The notes under the pieces are model-generated. The model had not been told where the DNA came from and searched no databases. It saw nothing but the letters and a program-made list of their open reading frames with translations. The translations under genes were made by a program, and so were the position numbers. This document shows, piece after piece, positions 1 to 14,224 of a DNA stretch of 64,000 nucleotides; within the stretch, counting starts at the first letter, position 1; each line of letters begins with the position of its first letter. Source of the DNA: an uncultured Actinomycetes bacterium (GTDB lineage Bacteria > Actinomycetota > Thermoleophilia > RBG-16-64-13); contig CAVPLM010000003.1 of the NCBI GenBank assembly GCA_963706025.1, positions 448,001-512,000 of the forward strand. The letters run 5' to 3'.

Positions 1-439
1 ACACGCTGGAGCACCGCGCCGACTACGCCGGCATCACCATCCTCTACGGCGCCACCGCCCCGGAGAACTTCACCTACCAGGTACGACATCAGACGACTGG
101 CAGAAGCGGGACGACTCGAACTCGTCCTCACCATCGACCGCGACTGTGACGGCTGGCAGTGCGACGTGGGCCTGGTGCCGCACGTGCTCGAGCGCATGAA
201 CCCCGATCCCGGCCAACACCATCGCCATCACCTGCGGTCCGCCCATCATGATCAAGTTCGCCCTCATGAGCTTCCAGAAGCTGGGCTTCACCGACGAGCA
301 GACCTACACCACGCTCGAGAAGCGCATGAAGTGCGGCATCGGCATCTGCGGCCGCTGCAACGTGGGGCCCAAGTACGTGTGCGTGGACGGGCCGGTGTTC
401 TCGCTGGCCGAGCTCAAGGAGCTGCCGGACGAGTTGTAG
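1..439 (+). CDS. 3' part of FAD/NAD-binding [2Fe-2S] oxidoreductase (sulfhydrogenase gamma / AsrB / PyrK family), cut by window edge
   Basis: C-terminal [29 protein letters not shown] [2Fe-2S] motif; upstream CGPPIM; frameshifts in the first 250 bp. Confidence 0.85.
317..353 (+). repeat. 37-bp direct repeat, copy 1 (inside the oxidoreductase 3' end)
   Basis: gagaagcgcatgaagtgcggcatcggcatctgcggcc matches 4254-4290 with one mismatch. Confidence 0.95.
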
Positions 440-440
440 G

Positions 441-547
441 AGAGCCGCACCTGCCCGATGGCGCCGCCGCGGGGCGCGAGGCTGACCGTGGGGCTCTGGG
501 CAAGATCTTGTTCGTTTTCTGTGGGGGGCGCCGGAAGGCGCCCCTCT
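441..547 (+). repeat. Intergenic repeat module, copy 1 (27-bp box plus GC hairpin)
   Basis: agagccgcacctgcccgatggcgccgc (441-467) and ggggcgccggaaggcgcccc hairpin; both recur at 2953-3115. Confidence 0.8.
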
Positions 548-568
548 TGGTTCGATTCTGAGCGGGGA

Positions 569-1633
569 CTAGCCCGCCAACACCTTGTCGGACTGCCGCT
601 GAAGCCAACCTTTGTTCGTGAGCACATTGAAGGCCAACTCGATCTGCTCTTCTGAGAACTTGCGCTTGCGTTCATTCCAGGCATAGGTTCGCGTAATCAC
701 TGAATTCAGATCATCCGCCGAATCGCGAGTCGCCACCCAGTGGACCGTTGCTAGGAGTTCTAGGCCAAACGGCGACTCGAAGCCTTGGACAAGATCGGCG
801 ACTCGGTCGAACTTCGACCTGGTTTCTTCATCATCTTTAAGAGTCACCAGTGCATCTGAGACAGCTCCTGGGACGAGTTTTAGCTCGGTATTCGGAGCTT
901 CATCACCCTGGACGAAGCCATCGACGAAGTACCCGTCGACTGCACGCAAGACGTGCCTCAGATTCTCAGCATACGGACCATAAAGGCCGGCCGCGAATCT
1001 GAGCCTGAGCGGCTGGGTCGCTTCCTGCATGAAGTAGAGGAGTTTGTGGACCTCAAGAAGCGAGACTGAAGGGTCCATCAACCCCGCGAGGTACCGGTCC
1101 ATCAGGGCGACGAGAGTGGCTCTTCCGGCAGTCATCTCGGGAGGCTTGCCGTGCCGAGTAGCCGGCTGTTCTTCCACTGCGTGAGTGGGTTCGAACACGA
1201 GGATGTCCACATCTGGAAGTGAACCGAGGGAAGCCTCGATTCTTGCTCGCACCACACCCCAACTCAACCCGCCCAACCCGCTGCCTAGCGGAGGGAGCGC
1301 GATAGACCTGATGCCTCTTGTCCGAATCTCCGCGACGAGCGCGTCGAGTCCAACCTCGATGTCTTCGATGCGACTCTTGCCACGCCAATGTCGTTTCGTC
1401 GGGAAGTTGATGATGTAGCGCGGATTTGTGAGGAGTCCCGTCTCGAACACGAACATGCGCCCCGGCTGCACGCCGCCACGATTGCAGGCAGCAACGTAGG
1501 CTTTGAAGTTCTCGGGGAAGGTTTCCTTGAACTGGAGGGCCACGCCGCGCCCCATCACCCCGACACAGTTGACGGAGTTCACAAGCGCCTCGCTGTCTTC
1601 AGCGAGAAGGTTTCCTTGCTTGTATCGGATCAT
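569..1633 (-). CDS. darG: DarG macrodomain antitoxin (DNA ADP-ribosyl glycohydrolase)
   Basis: GNLL..EALVNSVNCVGVMGRGVALQFK, IINFPTKRHW, SIALPPLGSGLGGL; C-terminal ELLATVHW; directly downstream of darT. Confidence 0.93.
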   Translation of the reverse strand: MIRYKQGNLLAEDSEALVNSVNCVGVMGRGVALQFKETFPENFKAYVAACNRGGVQPGRMFVFETGLLTNPRYIINFPTKRHWRGKSRIEDIEVGLDALVAEIRTRGIRSIALPPLGSGLGGLSWGVVRARIEASLGSLPDVDILVFEPTHAVEEQPATRHGKPPEMTAGRATLVALMDRYLAGLMDPSVSLLEVHKLLYFMQEATQPLRLRFAAGLYGPYAENLRHVLRAVDGYFVDGFVQGDEAPNTELKLVPGAVSDALVTLKDDEETRSKFDRVADLVQGFESPFGLELLATVHWVATRDSADDLNSVITRTYAWNERKRKFSEEQIELAFNVLTNKGWLQRQSDKVLAG

Positions 1634-1649
1634 CCGCGCGCTCCTTTCG

Positions 1650-2297
1650 TCAATAGTACCAGTCGCGACGGACGGCTACTGACGGACGAAGGGCGGCCCC
1701 GGGGATCGCCAATCGGACCCGGTTCACTAGAGCGGCTGAATGCACGCCCACGACCTCCACGAGATCCCAAGGGAAGAACCTATCGACAAGGAACTCGGCC
1801 TGCTTGCCCTCCTTGATATCGGCATTGCGGAAGTCGGAAGCCACAACGGCGTCCGAGTTGATCTCGGCAAGATAATGAAGGCGGATGCGGAACTGAGCGT
1901 AGGCCGCTCCGGCATTCGACAGACTGAAGACCGAGCTGACTGCAGCTGTGTCGGCCCACCGGACTGCCTCATGCAGGTCGGCCTGCAAGTGAACAATCGG
2001 TTCTTGCCCTCCCCTGTACGTCAAGTCAGGGTGATTCCCGCACGAGATTACGTAGAGCATGATTGAGCGGGGGCAGAAGTAGAAGGGCACGAATTCTCCC
2101 ACGGTCTTGCCGGGATGGCAGCTGACTGGCAGGTGGAGTCTTCGCTCCTTGAGCGAAGACATCCCGATCACTGACGTTGCGCCTCCATGCTGCAACATGT
2201 GCGAGTCCGAGAAGAGACCGTCGGCTGAGACAATGCCGGCGAGATTGTCGACATGCGTGATGTGATAGATCTTCGGTTTGTCTGGATGGTTGCTCAC
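1650..2297 (-). CDS. darT: DarT DNA ADP-ribosyltransferase toxin (DUF4433)
   Basis: IYHITHVDNL, VPFYFCPRSIMLY, KQAEFLV (catalytic Glu), terminal WYY; GTG start chosen from RBS. Confidence 0.92.
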   Translation of the reverse strand: MSNHPDKPKIYHITHVDNLAGIVSADGLFSDSHMLQHGGATSVIGMSSLKERRLHLPVSCHPGKTVGEFVPFYFCPRSIMLYVISCGNHPDLTYRGGQEPIVHLQADLHEAVRWADTAAVSSVFSLSNAGAAYAQFRIRLHYLAEINSDAVVASDFRNADIKEGKQAEFLVDRFFPWDLVEVVGVHSAALVNRVRLAIPGAALRPSVAVRRDWYY

Positions 2298-2459
2298 CGT
2301 CTCTCGGCTCACCTCCCCAAGGTCTTGGTTGACTATCCTAGGATACGAGATTAGCCGAACCTGCATGAAGGACCTTCGCAGTGGTTGTTCGGCCGGGCCA
2401 ACACGACAACGCCAGCTCTTGGAGGGCGCAGCCGCCGTCTTCGGGGAAAGCGAACAGGG

Positions 2460-2663
2460 CAAGGAGGTTTTCGGAGAGTCCGCCCATCTTGATCAAGTGG
2501 TGCACGAGGCCGACCTTCAGGGGATGATTCTGATGCGCGGGTATGGACAGGCGCACGTCGCTGTGCTCCCTGCCGTAGATGTGGTGGCTTCCGCGAACAC
2601 GAGAAGGACCCGGCCCTTGCTCTCGAGCGCCTTGGCAAGTTCGCGGCCGGATACGACCTTCAT
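2460..2663 (-). pseudogene. hicA: HicA-family toxin, frameshifted, normal stop not evident
   Basis: [17 protein letters not shown] / RVRGSHHIY..LSIPAHQNHPLKVGL split across two frames; overlaps hicB stop. Confidence 0.75.
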
Positions 2664-2863
2664 ACCGCGATTTCCACGATCCGATCACGCTCGCCGGTTT
2701 TGACAGAACCGACGTCGACGGACAGGCAGCCTTCGACGGCCTCATAGATGTTCAGAAGCAACTGCTCGAAGGTCTCGCCCTGGGTGCAGCAACCGGGTAT
2801 GGCCGGAACCTCGGCCCAGAAGCCGCCTTCTTCCGCCTCGTGGACCACTACCGTGAGCTTCAT
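2660..2863 (-). CDS. hicB: HicB-family antitoxin (short form)
   Basis: [39 protein letters not shown]. Confidence 0.88.
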
Positions 2864-2952
2864 GCCTCTCCCTCCAGCGGCTCGAGCTGCGATAGTCACA
2901 GTATAGCCCGGCCCTCATTTCCCGAACCAACAGGCCCGTAACACCCTGAGGA

Positions 2953-3115
2953 AGAGCCGCACCTGCCCGAGGGCGCCGCGCGGGCGGTTGTGTCCTGCCG
3001 CGGTGAACGGTGCGACACCCGGGGCAAGTCAGCGATCCGGGGCGGCGACGTCGACTGTCGAGGTTTCGTTCAGGAATGATCGTTTCCTCTGGGGGCGCCG
3101 AAAGGCGCCCCCATC
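2953..3115 (+). repeat. Intergenic repeat module, copy 2
   Basis: agagccgcacctgcccgagggcgccgc (2953-2979) and gggggcgccgaaaggcgccccc (3091-3112). Confidence 0.8.
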
Positions 3116-3232
3116 TCTGGGCCACTGGGTATCACTTTACAAGGGGCGAGTCGGCCGGCAAGCACGCTGTCAGCACAGTCCCCACATCTGTTACCATAAA
3201 AAAGGTTGGTTCCTGCCAATAATGAGGTAACT

Positions 3233-3743
3233 GTGCTGTCGTTGCTCGTAACATCCGCGGCGCGTCGCAAGCTTCTGGTGGGGTTCCTCACGCATCCTGG
3301 GGAGCGGTTCTACCTGTCTCAGCTCATCCGCGACCTGGAGATTACGTCGTCGGCGGCCCAGAAGGAACTCGCGCGCCTTACGGAAAGCGGGCTGCTCCTG
3401 AGCGAGCGCGAGGGTAATGTCCGCTTCTACACCGTGAACACGGCGCATCCGATCTACCGGGAGCTCAAGAGCATCGTATACAAGACGGAGGGGCTCGGCA
3501 GCGTGCTGATCGACTGTCTCCGGCAGGTTGCCGGCGTCACCGTGCTCTCAGCTACGGTTCGGTAGCTCGAAACACCGAAGACGCCATCTCCGACGTGGAT
3601 CTGCTTGGATCGTCGACGTGGAGCCCGCGGCCTGGATGGCGTTCTGCAGGCCGACAATCTTGAGCGTGACGTCGACGCTACCATCGACTGTGGCGAGTGG
3701 CCGACCGCGTGAATCGGCGACAGGCTTCGACTCGAAGTGCTGA
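3233..3743 (+). pseudogene. wHTH + minimal nucleotidyltransferase (MNT antitoxin), frameshifted
   Basis: HTH region ERFYLSQLIR..QKELARL..GLL..REGNVRFY; shifted frame gives YGSVARNTEDAISDVDLL (GS-x10-DxD). Confidence 0.8.
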
Positions 3744-3770
3744 ATGGACCGAAGATCTTCCTCATCGGAG

Positions 3771-4226
3771 ATGAAGATGGGCTTCGATGAGTTGGTTGGG
3801 AGGCGGGTCATCGAACCCAGCGATGTAGAGCCCGCTGAGATAGCTGGGCTGATGCGGGTAGCCCAGAGAGACATCGTGACTGCCTCGAGTCTGGTGCAGA
3901 CCGACCTCGACTGGGCATTCGCCGTAGCATACAACGCCATTCTGCAGAGTTCGGTGGCCTTCATCGCGAGTCACGGCTTCAGGCCGCACTCGCGCAACAA
4001 GCACTTCAACACCTTCCGCTTCATGTCCGCCGCGCTTCCCGATGAGAGCGACACCATTTCCCGGTTGCAGCGATTCCGAAAGAAGCGCCACGCGGCCGTG
4101 TACGAACAGCCGGGACTGATCAGCGCCCAGGAAGCACTGGACATCATCGAGTTCGCCGGACGCTACGTCGGGATGATCGAGGAACGGATGCCCCGAGAGG
4201 TGAGGGAGCGCCTGCGAGAGGGCTGA
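3771..4226 (+). CDS. HEPN-domain protein (partner of MNT)
   Basis: DWAFAVAYNAIL..., RKKRHAAVYE; follows MNT gene. Confidence 0.8.
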   Translation: MKMGFDELVGRRVIEPSDVEPAEIAGLMRVAQRDIVTASSLVQTDLDWAFAVAYNAILQSSVAFIASHGFRPHSRNKHFNTFRFMSAALPDESDTISRLQRFRKKRHAAVYEQPGLISAQEALDIIEFAGRYVGMIEERMPREVRERLREG

Positions 4227-4253
4227 CGCCGGATCAGCGCACAGCCAACAGAG

Positions 4254-4290
4254 GAGAAGCGCATGAAGTGCGGCATCGGCATCTGTGGCC
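4254..4290 (+). repeat. 37-bp direct repeat, copy 2 (supplies ATG to the integrase fragment)
   Basis: gagaagcgcatgaagtgcggcatcggcatctgtggcc. Confidence 0.95.
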
Positions 4291-4940
4291 AGGTGATGAC
4301 CCGCGGTGAAGCACGCGACGTTCTAGGCCTACTCTACGGTGACAAGTGGCTCATCGCCTCTCTGCTCCATGGCTGCGGGCTGCGACTGCTGGAGTGCCTG
4401 CGGCTACGGATCAAGGACATCGATTTCTCATGGGGCGAGATCACGGTTCACGACGGCAAGGGCGGGAAGGACCGCGTGACCATGCTGCCCGCATCGCTTA
4501 CCACTCCGCTGCAGGAGCACCTGCGCTTGGTCAAGATCACCCATGACGGCGATCTCGCCGATGGCTGGGGCCGCGTCGTTCTGCCGGCCGCGCTGGACCG
4601 GAAGCACCCGAACGCGCCGGCCGACTGGCGCCGGCAGTGGGTCTTTCCTCAAGCCACGCGGTGGAAGAACAGAAGTACAGGCGAAGAGGGAAGGCACCAT
4701 GTTCACGAGACCCTGGTTCAGCGGGCGGTGAAGGAGGCCGTCGGCCGGGCGGGCATCGTCAAGCATGTGGGGTGCCATACCCTTCGGCATTCCTTCGCCA
4801 CCCATCTGCTGGAGGCGGGCTACGACATCCGGACCATCCAGGAGCTCCTCGGTCACAACGATGTGCGTACCACCATGATCTACACCCATGTGCTCAACCG
4901 GGGCGGACAGGTTGTCCCTAGCCCGCTTGACGCTCTGTAG
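4263..4940 (+). mobile_element. intI: Integron integrase, N-terminally truncated (catalytic domain intact)
   Basis: [26 protein letters not shown], IntI-specific insert [28 protein letters not shown]-like, [27 protein letters not shown]; about 100 N-terminal residues absent. Confidence 0.92.
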
Positions 4941-5107
4941 GGCTGCATATACAGTCTGCATATCCGCGACGCTCCGGGAGGCGTCTCAGACTCGCAAGGC
5001 TCTCGGCGAGGCATATCGGGGCCATCTTGAGTCTCGAAACTGGTGCTATACAGACAGCCCTATGCTGCGGCAGTTGGCTTGCGCAGAGTGGATAATCATT
5101 GTTAGCT
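4941..5107 (+). other. Putative attI region downstream of intI (core G/TTAGCT at 5101-5107)
   Basis: GTTAGCT is exactly complementary to AGCTAAC (R'') of the next attC; repeated TATACAG motifs near 4948 and 5047; base composition drops after 5101. Confidence 0.65.
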
Positions 5108-5207
5108 TGCCAGAGCGCATCCTAAATATTCATGGTATAAGAAGAATCCTTCCGTATTTTGGTTCATCTTCAACCAGGTTGTTGACTATTATTCAGGAGA
5201 AAATACT

Positions 5208-6608
5208 ATGAACACAGAAAAACTGACCACACCAATTGGCGATTTTGATTTTGTGCTGGATGGTTATCCCACCAAAGAGACCGCCCAAAAACTGTTCGAT
5301 GCGCTTGATTTTCAGCGCGCCTGCCAGGCCTACCTTGACTTTATACCGGCAATGTCGATGTATTCATTGCTTGAGGGGCAGGAGAAAGGATTTGGGTGTA
5401 AGGAATGTTCCGACCTGGCTGTGGCCGCCGATTTGCTGGATGCGACACCCTATTTATTGACCGGCAATACAGAAAGCGTTTATTTTGCCGGTAATGTTGA
5501 CCTCAAGAAAGATGGCCCAACGGTGGTTGAAATCCCCCCGCAGGTTTTGGGCATGGCCAACGATGCCTATTTCCGGTATATCATTGATTTTGGCATGGTG
5601 GGTCCGGATCAGGGGCAAGGGGGAAAATACCTGCTGCTGCCGCCGGATTATGAAGGCGAAGTTCCCGAAGGGTATTTCGTCGCTCGTTCGCGCACCTACA
5701 AAGTGTGGATCATGGCCCGTGCCAGCCAAAAAATCAGCGGTATGGGCGAGCAGGCCATCAAATGGTATGGCGAGCATTGCGCGGTGTACCCGTTAAAGGG
5801 TGGAACCAGAAAGCCCAATATCATCAACGTCAGCGGTTTATCGACAGATGGCACCCACCCCAATGATTTCCAATATTTTGTCAATCTCGACAAGATGATT
5901 CAATACGAACCCACAGAGGCGTTTGACAAGGAACAATTGGGGCTGTTAAGAGCACTTGGCATCGAGAAAGGCAAGCAGTTTGACCCCGATGAGCGCATGC
6001 GGAAGATTCTCGACACCGCCGCCAAAACGGGTTTTGGCATGGCCCGGGCGATTGCCTATCAATCGCGCGAACCGGAAGCGAAAGTGTACCCGGATCGGAA
6101 TTGGGAATATATCTTTGTGGGCGGCAGCCATGAATTCTTGAAGAACGGCGTCCGCAACCTGGATGCCCGGACGCTCTTCCACTTCACCGCCATTTGTGTG
6201 ACCCCGGCCATGGTCAACAAAATCGTGGGCGCCGGGTCTCAATACCTGTGTGCCTATGTCGATGGGGATGGCGATTATCTGGATGGCGGCCAAACCTACC
6301 AGCTCCACCTGCCACCGAATATCCCCATCAACAACTTCTGGTCGGTGACGTTATATGATCCCAAGACGCGCTCGCTGCTGCAAAACGGCATGCCCAAGCC
6401 CAGCGTCAATAGCTTTGACGGGCCTGAACAGAATGTTGACGGTTCCTACGATGTCTTCTTTGGTCCGGAAGCGCCCGCCAGCAAAGAAAAGAACTGGATC
6501 AAAACCGTTCCCGGTAAGGGTTGGTTCACCTATGTCCGCTTCTACGGCCCGCTGGAGGCTTTCTTCGATCAGACCTGGAAGCCGGACGATATTGTCAAGA
6601 TTGGGTAG
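5208..6608 (+). CDS. DUF1254/DUF1214-domain protein (gene cassette 1)
   Basis: LDFQRACQAY, LTGNTESVY, DLKKDGPTVVE, GPDQGQGGKYLLLPP, GSQYL, FWSVTLYD, NWIKTVPGKGWF..RFYGP; visibly more AT-rich than host genes. Confidence 0.88.
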   Translation: MNTEKLTTPIGDFDFVLDGYPTKETAQKLFDALDFQRACQAYLDFIPAMSMYSLLEGQEKGFGCKECSDLAVAADLLDATPYLLTGNTESVYFAGNVDLKKDGPTVVEIPPQVLGMANDAYFRYIIDFGMVGPDQGQGGKYLLLPPDYEGEVPEGYFVARSRTYKVWIMARASQKISGMGEQAIKWYGEHCAVYPLKGGTRKPNIINVSGLSTDGTHPNDFQYFVNLDKMIQYEPTEAFDKEQLGLLRALGIEKGKQFDPDERMRKILDTAAKTGFGMARAIAYQSREPEAKVYPDRNWEYIFVGGSHEFLKNGVRNLDARTLFHFTAICVTPAMVNKIVGAGSQYLCAYVDGDGDYLDGGQTYQLHLPPNIPINNFWSVTLYDPKTRSLLQNGMPKPSVNSFDGPEQNVDGSYDVFFGPEAPASKEKNWIKTVPGKGWFTYVRFYGPLEAFFDQTWKPDDIVKIG

Positions 6609-6644
6609 TTGAATACTTGGTTTTGGTAGACTATCTAATAAGCA

Positions 6645-6770
6645 AGCTAACCCAGGCTGTAGCTGACCGGGGCTTTGCCCCGCGGGTAGGCGGCGCGCTT
6701 TTCAGCAATTCAATTCAAGCAAAGTCGCATTTTAGCGTCAACCCGCCCCGGCAGCTAAGCCCCGTTCTCG
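6645..6770 (+). other. attC site 1
   Basis: R'' AGCTAAC, L'' ctgtagctgac, arms ccgggg/ccccgg, L' gcagctaag, GTT at 6764. Confidence 0.8.
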
Positions 6771-6842
6771 ACGGGCTTCTGGCGCGGAGCCCCATGTCGG
6801 GCTGCCGCGAAATGTACGACATGGTTAAACGGCCGCTCGACG

Positions 6843-7165
6843 GTGGATTTGCGCCACAACCGCGACGACGTCGTCTGGATCACGATGAATCCGAGCGTCG
6901 GACACGAGCAGTCAGGTCGTCGGCCCGCCCTGGTCATCTCGCCCGGCTCCTACAATGGCAAGGTCGGCCTCGCCATCCTTTGCCAATCACCTGGCAGAGA
7001 ACGACGAACCGTACGCACGGATTCCGACGGGCTGCCGTCAGGGGTGGTGCCACGGATAGAAAGAGTCAGGACTAGAAGGCCCTAGGCGCGGAGTTCCTCT
7101 GCAAGGTGCCGCCCGACAGTACCGCAGCCGTCTTGCAGAGGTTGGAGAGGCTGGTGGCGCCGTAG
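6843..7165 (+). pseudogene. mazF: MazF/PemK toxin remnant (cassette 2)
   Basis: DVVWITMNPSVGHEQSGRRPALVISPGSYNGKVGLAILC followed by a broken frame. Confidence 0.8.
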
Positions 7166-7172
7166 CCTGGGC

Positions 7173-7232
7173 GCCCAACCATGGCTTCTATCTGACTCGC
7201 TTCGCTCGCAGTCAAGCCAAAAGACGCTAGGC
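7173..7232 (+). other. attC site 2 (short, R' degenerate GCTAGGC)
   Basis: GCCCAAC...ctgactcgcttcgctcgcag...aagacGCTAGGC, 60-bp imperfect palindrome right after a stop codon. Confidence 0.75.
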
Positions 7233-7298
7233 TCCACCCTTGGGAGGTGGACGCGCGAGCAGTGGTTGTTGGAGACCCTTCCGACTTGATCTAGCGCT

Positions 7299-7319
7299 GG
7301 TATGACGTAGCATCATACC
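7299..7319 (+). promoter_or_regulatory. TA autoregulatory operator palindrome
   Basis: GGTATGA-n7-TCATACC immediately before RBS GGAGG. Confidence 0.6.
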
Positions 7320-7332
7320 TGGAGGTACACTT

Positions 7333-7568
7333 ATGGGACGCTCAAGGATAGCATCACCCTGGAGAGGTCTGTCCGGTGAGTGGAGGGATTGTGGATAAGC
7401 GTGTCACCATAATCGACGGCGTGGCAGTCGAGGATGCCGTGACGAGAAGCTGGCAACGGTCGCGCCATCGTCTCGCGCAGGAGGGCGCCAAACTCGACCC
7501 CGACCACGAGCGGGCCTTGGCCGAGGAGGGTATTGGAGGGGAGATGGTTCGAGTGGCCCGAATACTGA
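7333..7568 (+). pseudogene. Ribbon-helix-helix antitoxin, frameshifted (cassette 3)
   Basis: RLAQEGAKLDPDHERALAEEG...WPEY stop, overlapping the mazF start. Confidence 0.65.
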
Positions 7569-7891
7569 GGGGCGAGATCCGTTGGGCGGAAATAAAAAAG
7601 AAAAAAGAAAACGAGCAGTCGGGGAGGCGTCCCGTCCTCATACTGAGCGCCGATGTCTTCAACGAGCGCTCGGGCACGGTGATTGGCGTTGACCTGACCA
7701 GCCAGGCTCCCCGGGCCGGTTTTCCCTTGACCCTCGAGCTGGATTCCGCGAAGCTGCCGAAAGTATCCTGGGTGAAGATCAGCCAGATACGGACACTGTC
7801 CACGGAACGCATCGGCCGCAAGATCGGGGCGGTTTCCCCGGAGGAACTGACGCAGGTCATGGAGGGTCTCAACGAAATCCTGGGGGCCTGA
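7553..7891 (+). CDS. mazF: MazF/PemK toxin (cassette 3)
   Basis: LRGEIRWA..EQSGRRPVLILSADVFN..SWVKISQIRTLSTERI. Confidence 0.85.
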   Translation: MARILRGEIRWAEIKKKKENEQSGRRPVLILSADVFNERSGTVIGVDLTSQAPRAGFPLTLELDSAKLPKVSWVKISQIRTLSTERIGRKIGAVSPEELTQVMEGLNEILGA

Positions 7892-7907
7892 CAAGCCGTT
7901 CATCGGA
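7886..7907 (+). other. Left half of a truncated attC site 3
   Basis: GCCTGAC-aagcc-gttcatcgga overlapping the stop codon; near-complement of the cassette start (G)CTAGGC; no right arm seen. Confidence 0.45.
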
Positions 7908-8176
7908 ATCCTTACTCAGCAGCTGAATTAACAGATTGGTCTTATGGGACGCTTCGGAACAAGTCGCTGCGCAAAGTCGCCGACAATCAATCTAGCGCTT
8001 TTGAGGGGGCTGTCGGGGACATCCCGATGAGTTCGCTACCGGCAGACTGAGGGATTCGCGGTCGGATCCGCGCAAAGATGGTGGCCAGGTTGGTCGCCAG
8101 TCTCCAACCAAGGTCGCGTCTTCGCCCCGGGGCGCTTCCGGAGACTCCGCGAAGCCCCATTCCTCCTCCATAGCGC

Positions 8177-8205
8177 TTGACGTATAACGCGGCACGTTAT
8201 AGGAT
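8177..8205 (+). promoter_or_regulatory. sigma70-type promoter with operator for higBA
   Basis: TTGACG-17-TAGGAT containing palindrome TATAACG-n5-CGTTATA. Confidence 0.7.
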
Positions 8206-8211
8206 GACAAC

Positions 8212-8490
8212 TTGATCAAGACGATCGCCGACGCCGAGACCGAAAAGGTGTTCCGTCGCGAGTTCTCGCAGAGGCTGCCCGGCGACATCCAATCGGTCGC
8301 ATTGCGAAAGCTGCGGATGTTGACAACGCGCATCCGGTCAACGACTTCGCAGTCCCCCGGCCAACCGGCTTGAGAAGCTGACCGGACGGCGCGAAGGCCA
8401 ATACAGCATCCGCATCAACGACCAATGGCGGGAGTGCTTCGCGTGGCACGCGGCGATCCGATCGACGTCCAGATCGTGGACTACCACTGA
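8212..8490 (+). pseudogene. higB: HigB (plasmid-maintenance killer) toxin, frameshifted
   Basis: IKTIADAETEKVF..RKLRML / NRLEKLTG.REGQYSIRINDQWR / VDYH stop. Confidence 0.8.
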
Positions 8491-8503
8491 GAGAAGGGTG
8501 ACC

Positions 8504-8829
8504 TTGGCCACAAAGAAACTCGTTGCCCGTCCACCCGGGCGAAGTGCTCTTGGAGGCGTTCCTCAAGCCCTCCGTGGTCAGCCAGACGGCTGCTCCACGG
8601 CGTGCCCCCGCGTCGGATCAACGAGATCGTTCTGGGCAAGCGTCGTGTGACGGCCGAGACTGCGCTCCGGCTTGCGCGCTATTTCGACACCACGCCGCAG
8701 TTCTGGCTGGGTCTCCAGGCCGACTACGACCTCGATGTTGCGGCGGACGCGCTCGGCGAACGCCTGGATCTTGAGGTTCAGGACACGGGCCGCGGTGATC
8801 TAGCCCAGGGGCCGGCGCGTTGGCTCTGA
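8504..8829 (+). pseudogene. higA: HigA antitoxin, frameshifted or internally deleted
   Basis: PVHPGEVLLE.FLKP / RRINEIVLGKRRVTAETALRLARYFDTTPQFWLGLQADYDL. Confidence 0.85.
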
Positions 8830-8910
8830 TGATCGCATGGAGCCGCTCGCCTACGGCGCGATCCGATCCCGACATTGCGCCGATGTTCGCAAGTACCTCG
8901 GCCTCGCATG
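8805..8910 (-). pseudogene. Fragment resembling a DUF1801-family N-terminus
   Basis: EAEVLANIGAMSGSDRAVGERLHAIIRANAP. Confidence 0.45.
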
Positions 8911-9182
8911 GAAGGCTTCCTCGAGCCGGCTTCCCGGCCTGCTTCGTCGACTCATCGCCTGCCTTGTTCGCGGCCACAGAGAGTCGCACCTAGCGTGTGT
9001 GGCCTGGGGGCTAACGCGCGGTCCGGCGCGAACCCTCGATTGGTTCGGCAACCGCATGACCTCGTGGCTGGTTCCGCCTACCCTAGCAACTGTCAGGCCG
9101 CACGGGCGAGGGTGACCGATGGTCACGGGCCATCATAACGGATCCGAGTCCACGAGTTCGCGCGTTAGAACCGCTTGTCCAA

Positions 9183-9225
9183 TCTGCATCAATCGTACAT
9201 ACTAATACATACGATTCTGATGCAG
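9183..9225 (+). promoter_or_regulatory. vapB operator palindrome
   Basis: ctgcatca-atcgta...tacgat-tc-tgatgcag. Confidence 0.55.
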
Positions 9226-9235
9226 GAGAAGAGAC

Positions 9236-9427
9236 GTGAGAACAACATTGAACATCGACGAGGAACTCCTCGACCAGGCATCCAAGATGACCGGGGTACG
9301 TGAGAAGACGACGTTGGTCAGGCTCGGGCTGGAAGCGCTCATCGCACGCGAAAGCGCGAAGAAACTGGCCAAGCTGGGGGGCACGGAGAAGCAGCTGAAG
9401 GATGTGCCGAGGCCTCGAAACTCCTAG
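9236..9427 (+). CDS. vapB: VapB-family antitoxin
   Basis: MRTTLNIDEELL..A..MTG..EKT.LVR.GLEALIARESA..LA.LGG. Confidence 0.85.
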   Translation: MRTTLNIDEELLDQASKMTGVREKTTLVRLGLEALIARESAKKLAKLGGTEKQLKDVPRPRNS

Positions 9428-9802
9428 ATGGTTCTGGGCGACTGATCGGTCTGGATTTCTCATTTGCCGAACAGGCCCATCAAGGAGCTGGCTGAGCTAC
9501 TCAATGCCGGAGAGGTAGTCTGTCACCCATTTGTCATCGGCGAATTGGCCTGCGACAACCTCGCGAACAGAACCACCATCATCTCGCTGCTGGAAGCTCT
9601 GCCGCTGGCTTCTGCGGCGACCCCTGAGGAGGTACTGATCTTCATTGAAGCCCAGCACCTCATGGGCAAGGGATTGGGCTACATAGACGTTCACCTGCTC
9701 GCTGCCGCTCTTCTGAACGGGGTCTCTCTCTGGACTCTGGATCTGAGACTGGACAAAGCCGCCGGGCGGCTCGACTGCAGATACAGGTCTGCGGGGATCT
9801 GA
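9428..9802 (+). pseudogene. vapC: VapC PIN toxin with in-frame TGA at codon 6
   Basis: MVLGD*SVWISHL...HPFVIGELAC...GLGYIDVHLL..LWTLD. Confidence 0.85.
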
Positions 9803-9981
9803 CCACGGCGAAATAGGCGTCCCGTCCGCCGTTCCACCTGCGATGGGTGTCACTGTTGGCATTGTGAGGGCCAGGACCGGAGACGTGCGTCTAGAGCCGT
9901 TCCCCCACATATCCAGCGCCTGAATCTACTCCGTATGAGATCGTCGACAAGGCAGGGCTCACCTACCCCAGATATGGGGAG

Positions 9982-10236
9982 TCAGTAGTGGTGCCGCAGC
10001 TGGGCGATCAAGAGGGAGTCGCCCTCCACCTTGTATACGATACGGTGCTCGTCAGTGATGCGGCGCGACCAGTAACCAGACAGCGAGTGCTTCAATGGCT
10101 CCGGTTTGCCCGGCCCCTCGAAGGGGCTGCGTTGAATCTCCTTGACGAGTGTGTTGATTCTCTCGACGATCTTGCGATCGGTCCTCTGCCAATAGAGGTA
10201 GTCATCCCAGGCGTGCGCTGAGAAGACGATCCTCAC
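9982..10236 (-). CDS. yoeB: YoeB/Txe toxin
   Basis: AWDDYLYWQ..GKPEPLKHSLSGYWSRRITDEHRIVY. Confidence 0.93.
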   Translation of the reverse strand: MRIVFSAHAWDDYLYWQRTDRKIVERINTLVKEIQRSPFEGPGKPEPLKHSLSGYWSRRITDEHRIVYKVEGDSLLIAQLRHHY

Positions 10237-10484
10237 TCGGTAAGCTCCCTCTCAGTCCCTCCGCCGGCCTCCAGTTCCATGATCGATTCGAGCAGGCGGC
10301 GCGCGCTCTTGGGGCTGCGCAAAAGGTAGGATGTCTCTTCGAGGGCCTCGTAGTCATCAAGAGAGATCATCACCACAGACGACGACGCCTTGCGCGTGAC
10401 GATGAGCGGCGCGTGATCCTCGCAAACGCGGTCCATCTCGCGGGCGAGATTGCTGCGAAGTCTCGTGTAAGGGATGGCGTCCAT
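10233..10484 (-). CDS. yefM: YefM/Phd antitoxin
   Basis: YTRLRSNLA..MDRV.EDHAP.IVTR..VMISLDDYEALEETSYLLRSP; upstream TGTAC..GTACA operator at about 10503-10522. Confidence 0.92.
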   Translation of the reverse strand: MDAIPYTRLRSNLAREMDRVCEDHAPLIVTRKASSSVVMISLDDYEALEETSYLLRSPKSARRLLESIMELEAGGGTERELTE

Positions 10485-10836
10485 GCCTATCCTCCTCGCT
10501 ATATGTACGGCTAATTGTACATGTGTGCGGCTGCTGAGACAAGAGCCTCGGCCCAAGCTGGCCACCCGCTCTGATCTCCTCGTCATAAGGGCGTTCGTCG
10601 AGACACGCCAGGATCGGCTCTCGTAATCGGTGACATGCGACCAACCGGCGTGGTGCGGCCGTGGTGCGAAGTCACGACGCCCCTCGAGTCCGCGGCGGAG
10701 TGCTTCCCCCGCGGTCCCGCGGCTCGTTTCCAAGGCGCTGCTTCATCGAGAGGCCTCGGTAGGTCGTCCGCCGGGCAACGGTCCGTCGGTTGCGGGCCCT
10801 GACCCTTAGCGAGCACGGCGTGTCACTTTGGACTCG

Positions 10837-10945
10837 ATGAAGGCCGCCGTCAACACACGCTGCGGACCGCCGGACTTTGCGGAGATCCGGGACGTGCCGA
10901 AACCTCGGCCAGGCCGGGGCGAGGTCTTGGTCAAGGTCCCCCCGA
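10837..10945 (+). pseudogene. N-terminal fragment of a zinc-type alcohol dehydrogenase/quinone reductase
   Basis: MKAAV..RCGPPD..EIRDVPKPRPGRGEVLVKV, then similarity ends. Confidence 0.6.
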
Positions 10946-11092
10946 CGCGGGCGATGTTCCTGTTACCCGGCGCGTGTCCGGTCCACCAACATCAGACCAA
11001 CGTCAGACCTGGGCCGCCTCTCGTCACTGCAAGATTGTTGTGTTGCATCGTTTCGAAGGTTTGGCCAGCGTATCTTTTAGGATACAATACGT

Positions 11093-11383
11093 ATGATCGA
11101 GATCGGACAGACTATGGAATTCGTTAGGTGGTTTGAAGGGCTGACGGATCGTCAGACTCGGGCTTGCGTCCTGGCCCGTGTTCGCCGGCTATCGCTTGGC
11201 AACTTCGGCGACACGGTGCCGGTTGGGGAGGGAGTGCTCGAGTTGAGGATCCATCACGGGCCGGGATACCGTGTCTACCTCGCAAGGATGGAGGCGCGGG
11301 TGGTCGTTCTTCTTGCCGGTGGTGTCAAGCGAACACAAGACAAGGACATTCGAAAGGCCAAGGAACTGGCTAAGGGATTGTGA
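11093..11383 (+). CDS. RelE/ParE-family addiction-module toxin (HI1419-like)
   Basis: F.RWF.GL.D...RVRRL.LGNFGD..PVGEGV.ELRIHHGPGYRVY..LLAGG.K.TQ.KDI. Confidence 0.9.
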   Translation: MIEIGQTMEFVRWFEGLTDRQTRACVLARVRRLSLGNFGDTVPVGEGVLELRIHHGPGYRVYLARMEARVVVLLAGGVKRTQDKDIRKAKELAKGL

Positions 11384-11393
11384 GGAGGGCACG

Positions 11394-11680
11394 ATGGCGA
11401 GAACAAGAACTCGTCTCTGGGATGCAGCAGAGTACCTTGAAACGGACGAGGATATCTTGGCTTACCTGGACACGCGTTGGAAGAGGGTGACGCGGCTCTG
11501 TTCGCAGCTGCTTGAGGAGACGTCGCGCGGGCGAAAGGCATGCAAGAGATCGCTCGGGAAACAGGACTAGGACGCGAGAGCCTTTACAAGGCGCTTTCTC
11601 CGAACGGAAACCGGGAGTTTGCCACGGTCTTGAAGGGTGTTGCGTTCGCTCGGCCTGAGCTGTACGCGGGAGTCAGGTAG
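11394..11680 (+). pseudogene. Addiction-module antidote (HI1420-like HTH), frameshift plus nonsense codon
   Basis: WDAAEYLET.EDI.AYL / AAA*GDVARAKGM..IARETGLGRESLYKALS..GN.EF.TV. Confidence 0.85.
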
Positions 11681-11789
11681 ATCGCGTGGATCCGCCTTCT
11701 TACCAACGATCTAAAGGAGTGGCCACGAAAGAAAAGTCCTGCAAGATTCTGTACGGCCGAATGGAGCTTATTCGGTTTGAGGTATGTAG

Positions 11790-12068
11790 TAAGGTTAGGG
11801 GGTTTTCTCCGGGGTATCGACACGGACGTTCCCAGGGAGGCGGACCGGACCTGAACGTCGTCGACTCGTGTGGATCGGGCTCGAATACTTCGCGGACGGG
11901 CCGAACGCCGAGTTCTTTGCCGGAGCCATAGAGGCCACTGCGGAGCTTGCGGTGCCCACTATCAGCCGGTACGAGGTGTTCAAGCGCGTCCTCCAGCAAC
12001 GGGGTGAGAGTGCGTCTCTACATTCGATCGCGATAAAGAAGCAGGGTCCATGCAATCTCGGACCTTGA
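11790..12068 (+). pseudogene. Remnant AbrB-type antitoxin end plus truncated PIN toxin
   Basis: GIDTDVPREADR stop, then NVVDS../LEYFADGPNAEFF..VPTI..YEVFKRVLQQRGE. Confidence 0.7.
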
Positions 12069-12096
12069 AGAGCTGCTTTGCACTTCTCCCGAATCC

Positions 12097-12843
12097 CTAG
12101 ATCGATAAGCGTTTGTGCGTCGGCCCCTGCGACGTCGGCCATGAATGAAGCAACGGTAAGTCGGGCGCCACGCCGCTGTTCGGCGCTGAGCCCCTCAGGA
12201 AGCTCGCTATCGACGACTTGAGTTGCCCGAATATCCTTTCATCGGTCACGCCGAAGTGCAGCATATTGGTTGGGCCGAAGAACACCAGTCTGCCATGCAT
12301 CACGGACGCATACATGGCGTAGGCCATGCCGATGGCCTCATCTGGGTCCGGATGTCCGATCTCCTCCCGATGCGCGGCGAGCACCGCGGCCAGGGCGCGC
12401 CTACGCTCCTGGTTGATCTGCTCCCCTTTCCGGCGCATCACCGGATCGAAGGCCGATAGCATCATGAAGGCCCGGGACAACTCGCGTTCGCTCAGCACGT
12501 GCTCTACGAGGATGCCGAATCCGTGATCGACCGCTTCCTCCAGAGACTCCTCGACTTGCGCCTGGGCTTCCAGCGCGGCCAGGATGGACGGCTCCAGGCG
12601 GTCGTGTAGGCGCGCCTGGACCGTGTGCAGCAGTGCGGTCTTACCGGGGAAGCGGGAATAGAAGGCCCCGACGGAGAGGCCGGTGCGGTCGAGCACGCTC
12701 TGGATAGTGAACAGGTCCAGCTCTTCTTCGCGGAGCTGGTCCTCTGCCGCCGCCAGCATTCTCTCCAGAGACGCGTGCCCCGGTCTACGGCGAGGAGGGT
12801 GATATGTGCTCTGTTCTCGTTCCATGAGGCAAGTATAGACCAT
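12097..12843 (-). CDS. TetR-family regulator
   Basis: N-terminal [31 protein letters not shown]; divergent from the ABC operon. Confidence 0.88.
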
Positions 12844-12856
12844 TCCAACCCGTTAG

Positions 12857-12909
12857 AAGAATCCTAGTTCTGTTATCCTTGCAATATGATAACAGAATCG
12901 TTATTCTGT
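12857..12909. promoter_or_regulatory. Probable TetR operators in the divergent promoter
   Basis: TTCTGTTATC-n10-GATAACAGAA and ACAGAAT-n4-ATTCTGT palindromes. Confidence 0.65.
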
Positions 12910-12998
12910 CAGAGGAACGAGGGGAAAGCGGCTCTCTTCTATCCGGGCAGTGGAGCGAGCGCTCCGTTGACAAGATGAGGATCTGGAGGAGGACAAGG

Positions 12999-14224
12999 AT
13001 GAAAAGATGCATAGCTCTACTGGCGATTATCGCAGTCGCGTCGGCCCTGGTGCTGGTAGCCTGCGGCTCGGAGCCGGAAGAGTCGACGACCACCGGAGCA
13101 CCGACCACCGGGGCGCCCACTACCGCGGCGCCTACGACAGGGGCACCGACGACCCAGGCGCCGTCGGGCGAGAAGGAGGTCCTCGGGGTATGCCTGCCGG
13201 CTCTGGACAACCCCTTGATGATCGAGATCCAGGATACCTTCGTGAAAACTTCGGAGAGACGTATGACGTTCAGGTCTCCAGCGCCGACGGCAACCCCAAC
13301 ACCCAGGCCAGTCAGGTCGAGAACTACACTGCCATGGGAGCCAAGTTCATCTGCGTCATGGCCGTCGAGGCGACGAGCCTGCTGCCCAAGCTCGAAGCTG
13401 CCCGCGAAGCGGGAGTCCTCGTCATGGTGATCGGCGGTGAGCCCGGCGAGTCGGGCCGCGACGCGGTCATGAAGATGGACCAGTTCCTTGCCGGCGAATA
13501 CTGCGCTTTCATGGGCAAGAGCTGGGTGGAGAAGACCTTCCCAGATGCCGCCCCGGGCTCGATCGAGACCGCGGTTCTCACGTCTTCACTGACCACCGAA
13601 TCGGTGCAGCGCTCCAACGGCTTGCTGATGATCAGTGAGCCCTACCTGAAGAACTCCGAGGGGGCGTACATCGACGCGAGTGGGACGCCCATCTCGGATG
13701 CCAAAGGGGCGTACGTAGCTGGTAAGTCGGACGCCGATAGGGTGGCGAACCCAGTCTTCTGCCCGGCCGTCAAGATCGTCCAGACGCCGCCGGCCGAGAT
13801 GTTCCAGGCCGGTCAGACCGCCATGCAGAACATCCTCACGACCAACCCGAACGTGCAGCTGGTCCTCGCCTATGCCTCCGACGGCGGCAATGGCGCCTCC
13901 CAGGCGATCATGGATGAATTCGGCAAGGGCTCCAGCAGTGTCGTGAAGGACCTGGCCAAGATGGCCGTCTTCGGCGTCGGGATGTTCGGCCCCGAGGGCG
14001 ACGCGATAGTCGCGTCCGGCCAGGGCAAAGGGGTCTTCCGGGGCGCGATCGCGTTCGGAGGCGGTGATCTGCCCGGCAAGACCGTCGGTATCGCTACCCT
14101 GATGCTTAACGGCGATGACTACCCGGAAGTCACTTGGGACGAACTCGCGCTGGCAACCCTCGTCGACGGGAAGCTCGTTATGAAGCCCATGGCCAACTCC
14201 GGCGTGGTCGTCATCTCGGAGTGA
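12999..14224 (+). CDS. Sugar-type ABC substrate-binding lipoprotein (frameshift near 13250)
   Basis: Lipobox LVAC, TTGAP repeats, LPALDNP, SADGNPNTQASQVEN (RbsB-like). Confidence 0.82.

Follow-up and report, generated by a model that had tools for sequence, protein, structure and literature searches.

How does the end of a metabolic gene come to form the beginning of a recombinase? The question is raised by a 64,000-nucleotide stretch of the genome of an uncultured Actinomycetes bacterium (assembly GCA_963706025.1, contig CAVPLM010000003.1, positions 448,001 to 512,000), here called the window and numbered from its first letter. Close to its left edge lies the 3' part of an oxidoreductase gene, and 37 base pairs of that gene recur about 3.9 kb downstream, where they are joined in frame to a 5'-truncated integron integrase gene (intI'). 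The original prediction offered two origins for this arrangement: an att-like target duplication within a protein-coding gene, or a deletion or recombination scar from a tandem copy of the locus. We find that the downstream copy is most likely a recombination scar rather than a working attachment site, and that it belongs to a series of gene-end relics seen both here and in related genomes.

Results

The integrase reading frame starts inside a copy of the oxidoreductase gene

Five features, all on the plus strand, define the junction and its source.

317–353, plus strand: copy A of the 37-mer, 12 codons within the intact oxidoreductase gene
4254–4290, plus strand: copy B of the 37-mer (relic U3), which gives the Shine-Dalgarno (SD) sequence, the ATG (4263) and the first nine codons of the intI' open reading frame (ORF)
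4291–4940, plus strand: 5'-truncated integron integrase gene, catalytic domain only; IntI homology from 4293; TIGR02249
1–439, plus strand: 3' part of the flxA/PyrK-like oxidoreductase gene (stop codon 437–439); PF10418, NCBIfam AsrB/HydG-like; four indels at about 84–211 break the frame
441–544, plus strand: 3' tail of the oxidoreductase gene, with a terminator-like hairpin at 524–544; homology to relatives stops at about 544–550

The two copies are direct repeats identical at 36 of 37 positions, the sole difference being a C>T change at position 33, and their longest identical run is 32 bp. With up to three mismatches allowed the 37-mer has just two matches in the window, against an expectation of 0.00 from 100 shuffles, and BLAST across the whole 3.66-Mb, 30-contig assembly returned no third copy. 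Copy A falls within the final 63 codons of the oxidoreductase. Copy B contributes the ATG at 4263, with GGAG (4253–4256) placed 6 nt 5' of it, and the ORF that begins there (4263–4940, 225 aa) is open across 678 nt. Every relative's IntI aligns to this ORF only from residue 10 or 11, the V of VMTR. The original prediction was thus right about the repeat and its single mismatch, about the in-frame joining of a host-gene fragment to an IntI without its N-terminus, and about the start codon and ribosome-binding site that the graft supplies.

The integrase itself is recognisable and incomplete. Its catalytic domain is matched by TIGR02249, a model that includes the IntI-specific insertion, at 321.6 bits against a cut-off of 265 (profile positions 101–315 of 315) and by PF00589 at 113 bits, whereas the first ~100 residues, which would hold the N-terminal core-binding domain of a complete protein, are missing. 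RLR, GKGGK, HTLRH and GH..Y, which we take to be the motifs of the catalytic domain in this family, are visible in the translation. A tblastn search with residues 1 to ~113 of three full-length relatives (328–353 aa) found no IntI N-terminal part in the 30 contigs, the only match reaching that part being a 29%-identical paralog on contig C5. Without the N-terminal domain tyrosine recombinases cannot clamp DNA. Relatives often have a decayed intI: the G008 copy closest to ours is a pseudogene with an internal deletion and a stop, and several others hold just C-terminal fragments. The fused form was not found in the 60 other genomes of the family, none of which has an IntI of at least 70% identity near the oxidoreductase gene on the same contig, nor among 80 metagenome loci retrieved with intI' (best identity 79%), none of which has an oxidoreductase fragment upstream. 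The adjacency of intI' and the oxidoreductase is specific to this lineage.

These observations bear on whether the fusion is a domesticated gene, its 225-aa product being made, perhaps by co-transcription with the nucleotidyltransferase and HEPN genes that precede it, and affecting the recombination of cassettes, for instance by binding DNA or as a dominant-negative factor. That the frame has stayed open over its full length though neighbouring genes carry indels, that the junction is in frame behind a GGAG and recurs in a contig of run X3 (see below), and that the catalytic domain scores above cut-off with its motifs in place would all suit a gene in use. We nevertheless consider this highly unlikely, given the loss of the clamping domain, which is encoded nowhere else in the assembly, the failure to find the form in the other family genomes or the metagenome loci, the frequency of intI decay in relatives, the lack of any promoter-like site upstream of the ORF, and the fact that a random joining falls in frame one time in three. 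A search for microhomology at the junction found that the intI gene of G006 has the CATCTG of the 37-mer end and that those of three other relatives do not; we have not relied on it.

The host gene is a PyrK/AsrB/HydG-like oxidoreductase, presumably flxA-like, with a DHODB iron-sulfur domain (PF10418, E 2e-12, and NCBIfam matches), and is the last gene of an hdr/flx-like operon. Its end is kept at 72–93% identity in 32 of 41 relatives and is matched in 48 of the 61 family genomes. Sliding identity over the last 1.9 kb of the gene against five relatives showed no break near 317, which speaks neither for nor against an imported 3' end. A hairpin at 355–439 within the gene end (CTGCAAC...GTTGTAG, 6/7 complementary, -15.3 kcal) was not counted as an attC site.

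The junction is not peculiar to this assembly

The genome (G000) is a 30-contig bin with 7.3% contamination, and a chimeric join at a shared k-mer would be a trivial source of the fusion. A 372-nt contig of sequencing run X3 spans 4023–4394 colinearly, with six differences and no gap, so that the junction, for which the original prediction had asked for a misassembly check, is covered by a further contig. Contigs of runs X1 (2924–4283) and X2 (3106–4282) lead from the HEPN gene into the 37-mer and end there, as k-mer assemblies do at repeats. One of the three runs may be the source sample, and their agreement counts as support, not as independent proof. The fragmented and contaminated bin, its clustered indel errors and the breaking of short-read contigs inside the 37-mer are what an artefact would predict; but copies A and B have different sequences on either side, which excludes a simple mis-join, the contigs confirm the HEPN side and cross the junction, and analogous relics occur in independent genomes. 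We find an artefact hardly credible.

Short-read contigs differ from the window by indels of 1–3 bases at 84, 90, 114, 211 and 3542–3657, exactly where the frames of the oxidoreductase and nucleotidyltransferase genes are broken, and the contigs of related strains are free of indels in both genes; the four in the oxidoreductase gene show up against an X1 contig. The clustered indels are likely to be local assembly errors rather than gene decay. An HdrA-like gene (L002 6776–9478) is also broken by clustered, partly compensating indels of 1–3 bases.

Excision between the two copies is possible in principle because they share 32 identical bp; it would ruin the iron-sulfur domain of the oxidoreductase and remove three antitoxin genes. 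The corresponding joint, 353|4291, was not seen in the three contig sets. Two other joints in X2, 440>4874 (side 22) and 2948>5067 (side 39, with 10 letters between), were too short for interpretation.

The bracketed block holds a second relic of the same gene end

The original prediction placed three modules between the repeats, darTG, hicAB and an MNT-HEPN pair, and profile matches bear this out, hicAB and HEPN weakly.

569–2462, minus strand: darG (569–1633) and darT (1650–2462); NF048014 440.6 bits, NF048013 216.4 bits
2338–2899, minus strand: hicA (frame-shifted in the assembly) and hicB; weak profile matches, E about 1e-5, below cut-off
2927–3111, plus strand: relic U2, consisting of a hicB-side flank (CCAACAG...CCTGAGGA), then a tail copy (2953–2979) and hairpin (3091–3111); coding part deleted
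3187–4235, plus strand: winged helix-turn-helix (wHTH)-nucleotidyltransferase gene (MNT; indels 3542–3657) and HEPN-like gene (to 4226); 80% identical to a module in the G070 island

The darTG pair is secure, a DarT gene beside a macrodomain DarG gene, with both scores above their cut-offs (150 for NF048013, 250 for NF048014). The hicAB module is 94% identical to that of G001 (window 2467–2957). For the third module the G070 ortholog of the nucleotidyltransferase passes Polbeta (28.1 against a cut-off of 26.9), and the HEPN match (E 0.004) lies below cut-off. The accessory genes between the repeats have a GC content of 54–61% compared with 64%. Profile and gene annotation of the block showed no recombinase within 354–4253, and Rfam at gathering thresholds gave no match in the window.

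Between hicB and the nucleotidyltransferase gene lies a second relic of the oxidoreductase gene end. Positions 441–467 match 2953–2979 at 26 of 27 positions and 524–544 match 3091–3111 at 20 of 21, so that tail and hairpin are both represented. This relic, U2, is orthologous to a 123-bp relic in G001, a genome of the same genus, where the order is oxidoreductase gene, tail and hairpin, then hicAB, then a decayed copy of window 314–436 (123 bp, 83%). The G001 relic has exchanged its start codon (ATG>GCG) and lost its Cys codons and its stop. Since a second relic of the same gene end stands inside it, the 3.9-kb block is not one unit bounded by two cores.

We also observed that the G001 relic (L013 12588–12710, minus strand), lacking a stop, reads into a small ORF with an attC site behind it; G001 thus joins a dead gene end to an integron cassette.

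Truncated copies of the gene end recur across the family

Extra partial copies lie a few kb downstream of the full gene in 9 of the 61 genomes (G000, G001, G003, G059, G062, G067, G069, G070 and G073), where copies of its 3' part that lack their 5' portion stand behind the complete gene, each with its own cargo. In G003 two genes precede a 50-bp relic of 391–440, after which comes the VapBC module of window 9151–9880; in G059 the gene is followed by a hicAB-like pair and a copy of 133–390; in G070 a copy with its tail lies 5' of the MNT-HEPN module that resembles 3187–4235; and G067 has three extra gene-end copies. G011 has the tail followed by the HigBA module of window 8047–8804. Right ends of the relics fall at about 544–550, just beyond the hairpin. 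Their left ends, in window positions, are -325, -254, -46, 19, 27, 27, 133, 295, 314, 317 and 391.

Some left ends recur within a genome: in G067 the flanks of copies 2 and 3 agree completely over at least 90 nt, and in G062 two copies have ~45 nt in common. Such a repeated left end reads as a duplicated junction. In a tree of positions 133–440 (23 sequences) the extra copies of G059, G070 (100/100) and G062 (95/81) cluster with the resident full copy, which points to duplication or conversion inside the genome.

A relic longer than ours is found next to the same integrase. A 649-nt contig of X2 contains 320–440, then 55 unaligned letters, then 4337–4810; a related strain thus keeps, close to the same truncated intI', a relic that reaches the stop codon. 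Position 4337 lies 83 nt from the start of the 37-mer in the window and ~179 nt from it in the X2 contig, a difference of 96 nt, which is a multiple of three.

These data weigh on the first origin that had been proposed, in which a 3.9-kb integrative island, with the two 37-mers as its attL and attR, inserted site-specifically into the oxidoreductase gene and restored the 3' end of that gene. Near-identical core repeats at both ends of a block of lower-GC accessory genes are what such an island would leave, relic left ends in the genus g1 cluster at 311–317, and an 8-mer, GCCAACAG, adjoins two of those relics. A site-specific island would also have a cognate recombinase and a fixed crossover. 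No recombinase lies between the copies, and 136 ORFs of 165 aa or more from the islands of eight relatives gave no match to a tyrosine or serine recombinase (three are parts of insertion sequence (IS) transposases). The crossover is not fixed, left ends ranging from -325 to +391 across the family. The only nearby recombinase gene, intI', is not part of the block, is without the N-terminal domain and is flanked on its other side by an attI of its own. The block is composite, the G001 module, which otherwise matches, has no darTG, what comes after copy B is intI rather than the displaced gene end expected of attR, the X2 relic beside the same intI' is longer, and the 37-mer has no GTT on either strand. 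An att-like target duplication is thus unlikely in view of the internal relic at 2953–3111, the varied left ends, the missing recombinases and the X2 contig; the other origin proposed, a scar from a tandem copy of the locus, fits the evidence.

The cargo of the eight relatives' islands includes SIR2 with HerA, Schlafen-like, DUF4411, Eco57I-type methylase, Mrr, Macro, PIN, HicB and MazE genes. In the same hot spot, the G073 island (L031 12417–14742 and 10302–11501) has a SIR2-like gene adjoining a HerA-type ATPase gene, and a Schlafen/AlbA_2 gene, all of them defence-system cargo.

The truncated integrase belongs to a decaying integron of reverse type

Downstream of intI' the window continues into an integron and a long array rich in toxin-antitoxin (TA) genes.

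4941–5107, plus strand: attI-like region with repeats TATACAGTCTG, TATACAGACAG and GCAGAGTGGATAAT; crossover G|TTAGCT at 5101/5102
5102–6773, plus strand: first cassette, with a DUF1254/DUF1214 gene (5208–6608) and a candidate attC site (6646–6773; E 0.005)
7174–7233, plus strand: candidate attC site after a MazF-like remnant; 23.1 bits, E 2e-4 on 13 kb and E 0.004 on 260 kb
6759–12050, no single strand: rest of the TA-rich array, with two MazF genes, HigBA, VapBC, YoeB-YefM, Gp49/HTH and a PIN remnant

The repeats 3' of the intI stop are common to G000, G005, G006, G008 and G016, and end in a TTGTTAGGC-like sequence. Homology between the window and G008 covers 4296–5101 (82.5%) and ends at the G of GTTAGCT, which is where integron crossovers fall. 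The window thus has an attI next to intI, with a GTT crossover at which homology of the arrays breaks. We take the integron to be real, of reverse type, and decaying.

For attC sites we built a covariance model from 27 sites of relatives and metagenome loci. Apart from the two candidates listed, both modest and on the expected strand, it returned nothing below E 0.05 in 1–13000 and nothing significant in 545–4253. The same model found four sites in the G001 island, on the strand of the gene and without any IntI, three downstream of the G008 intI, and one on contig C5. An earlier model made from the G016 sites alone had no match in the window, and our own scan for R''/R' hairpins yielded just multi-hairpin, unconvincing candidates. 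A metagenome contig with a 79%-identical IntI carries a HigBA module downstream of intI; HigBA and VapBC of the window recur in the arrays of relatives. Core genes resume at a TetR gene (12100–12852).

In three genomes of the genus the oldest relic borders integron-derived cassettes: in G000 it stands beside intI', in G001 beside an attC-bearing cassette, and in G003 beside VapBC. This position at the cassette border suggests that the oxidoreductase gene once directly adjoined the integron.

Several further observations concern the integron and its array. G016 (L037 10300–19501) has a textbook reverse integron with an intact 335-aa IntI, an attI and at least 16 attC sites of ~93 nt downstream, several of its cassettes being duplicated (spacings of 300–302 and 740 recur). 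A promoter-like TTGACG-17-TACAGT (4927–4955) overlaps the intI stop and the conserved TATACAGTCTG repeat and is a candidate cassette promoter of the reverse integron. The first cassette gene (5208–6608) has a GC content of 46–55%, compared with 64% for the genome; word depths at its start reach 388 in X2 and 194 in X3, neighbouring bins being under ~25, and the gene thus appears to circulate in many other organisms of the samples. The two MazF/PemK-like genes (6759–7082, which matches just profile positions 1–42, and 7352–7888) have a 28-nt repeat in common (6904–6931 and 7611–7638; 79%).

A second locus, on contig C5 at ~50.7 kb, is connected with the first by an identical fragment. Positions 4854–4958, the last 87 nt of intI, its stop and the 18 nt after it (105 bp), are 100% identical to L001 6699–6803. 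The C5 fragment lies directly upstream of lepA; after it come a diverged stretch resembling attI (GGATAATGGTTGTTCGC), a ParE/RelE-type pair and an attC hit (L001 3535–3637, E 9e-6). This is a second, almost erased reverse-integron platform, and the perfect identity over 105 bp suggests recent conversion or exchange between the two.

Discussion

We asked how 37 bp of a redox gene came to head an integrase. The answer that we favour is that they are probably the remnant of an old gene end: insertion of modules, driven by homology, displaced successive ends of the oxidoreductase gene, and the oldest of these was trimmed down to 37 bp and joined through a deletion to an intI that was already dead.

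In this family the region that follows the oxidoreductase gene is a hot spot for TA and defence modules. According to the model, a new module would enter by recombination anchored in the 3' part of the gene itself, a RecA-type event in which a circle may integrate in Campbell fashion, or possibly by homology-facilitated illegitimate joining. The module would bring with it a fresh gene end, tail and terminator, so that the gene stays intact, and the previous gene end would move downstream as a 5'-truncated relic. The direct repeats that result could then duplicate, convert one another and erode by small deletions, and unequal exchange could shuffle the copies. The order in the window is the intact end (317–544), darTG with hicAB, the tail-only relic (2953–3111), MNT-HEPN and the 37-bp relic. 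The oldest relic would have abutted an integron of reverse type, the integrase of which was by then without its N-terminal DNA-binding domain, and a further small deletion would have joined the 37 bp in frame to the catalytic domain, the fused ORF presumably being without function. The TA cargo would penalise deletions between repeats, as may be expected since stabilisation of integron arrays by TA genes is known (cited in PMC13617665).

A number of observations weigh against this reconstruction. The G073 relic groups with the G070 copy and not with its own, which fits import rather than duplication. Three relic left ends of the same genus fall within 311–317, leaving room for a site-specific event in the lineage, and GCCAACAG stands just left of both the G001 relic and U3, although the G000 ortholog of the former, U2, has CCAACAG only. 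The intI' ORF is intact, with SD and ATG, which a pure scar need not have. A later internal deletion in the lineage of the window is deduced from lengths in the X2 contig, and the apparent in-frame difference of 96 nt is a matter of arithmetic. Finally, the clustered indels mark the assembly as locally noisy, and statements about single bases are soft.

The 37-mer taken alone is a scar that needs no new mechanism. The wider pattern is of more interest: at one conserved spot in a bacterial family, copies of the end of a housekeeping gene that lack their 5' portion are stacked, and between them lie DarTG, HicAB, MNT-HEPN, SIR2-HerA, Schlafen-like and restriction parts, with no recombinase visible. 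A bolder proposal, possible but doubtful, is that the oxidoreductase 3' end and its terminator act throughout the family as a 'homology handle' for an integrase-free gene-capture array, in which modules carrying a copy of the host gene end dock by RecA-type recombination, stack as cassettes do in an integron and are held by their own toxins. Here such an array would have merged with a true integron, and the truncated IntI may still be produced from its grafted start. If true, this would provide a testable route by which integrase-free islets enter and shuffle, and would explain why TA cargo protects repeat-flanked arrays against deletion. The locus also documents reverse-type integrons, and their decay, in this lineage.

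Phages and islands that integrate into the 3' end of a protein gene and provide a replacement end, such as e14 in icd, offer a first comparison. As there, an intact gene would have been rebuilt from incoming DNA, with the old 3' end left downstream. Such elements carry an integrase and one fixed core, whereas no integrase was found in the modules described here and their boundaries vary.

In the reverse integron of Treponema denticola ATCC 35405 the integrase gene and the cassette array run in one direction and are separated by attI and a GTT junction (PMC4909258). Here, too, attI is on the 3' side of intI, and integrase gene and cassettes share one orientation. In contrast to the T. denticola integron, the integrase is without its N-terminal third, the window has just two modest attC matches, and the array consists mostly of TA pairs, some of them decayed. 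The IntegronFinder survey described CALIN, clusters of cassettes that lack a functional integrase; 15 of 279 CALIN had intI pseudogenes within 10 kb (PMC4889954). The G001 island, with its attC sites and no IntI, and the truncated intI of G000 resemble these. We met no description there of a truncated integrase gene that, as here, owes its start codon to a piece of a metabolic gene of the host.

Compact TA islets can integrate by homologous recombination at flanking core genes, as argued in the discussion of a further study (PMC13617665). Like these, the family hot spot has integrase-free TA modules at a fixed spot between core genes; it also has partial duplications of the flanking gene, of which we met no mention there. 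In the portions of the literature on which we draw we met no description of stacked partial copies of a metabolic gene end between TA modules, which is not proof that there is none.

A structural parallel is offered by the orphan modules of rhs-CT/rhsI and cdiA-CT/cdiI, which lie downstream of a main gene and are described as fragments displaced from it, each with its own cargo and with shared sequence that allows homologous recombination (PMC3967940). Both arrays consist of a full-length gene followed by displaced pieces with separate cargo. A displaced Rhs piece encodes a functional toxin tip and has its immunity gene as cargo, whereas the relics described here are decayed, dead ends of a redox gene and their cargo is of unrelated TA and defence genes. 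Set beside these systems the fusion itself is ordinary, a relic joined to a dead recombinase in a decayed reverse integron, and the stacking of gene-end copies between defence modules, seen across the family, is a variant that deserves a closer look.

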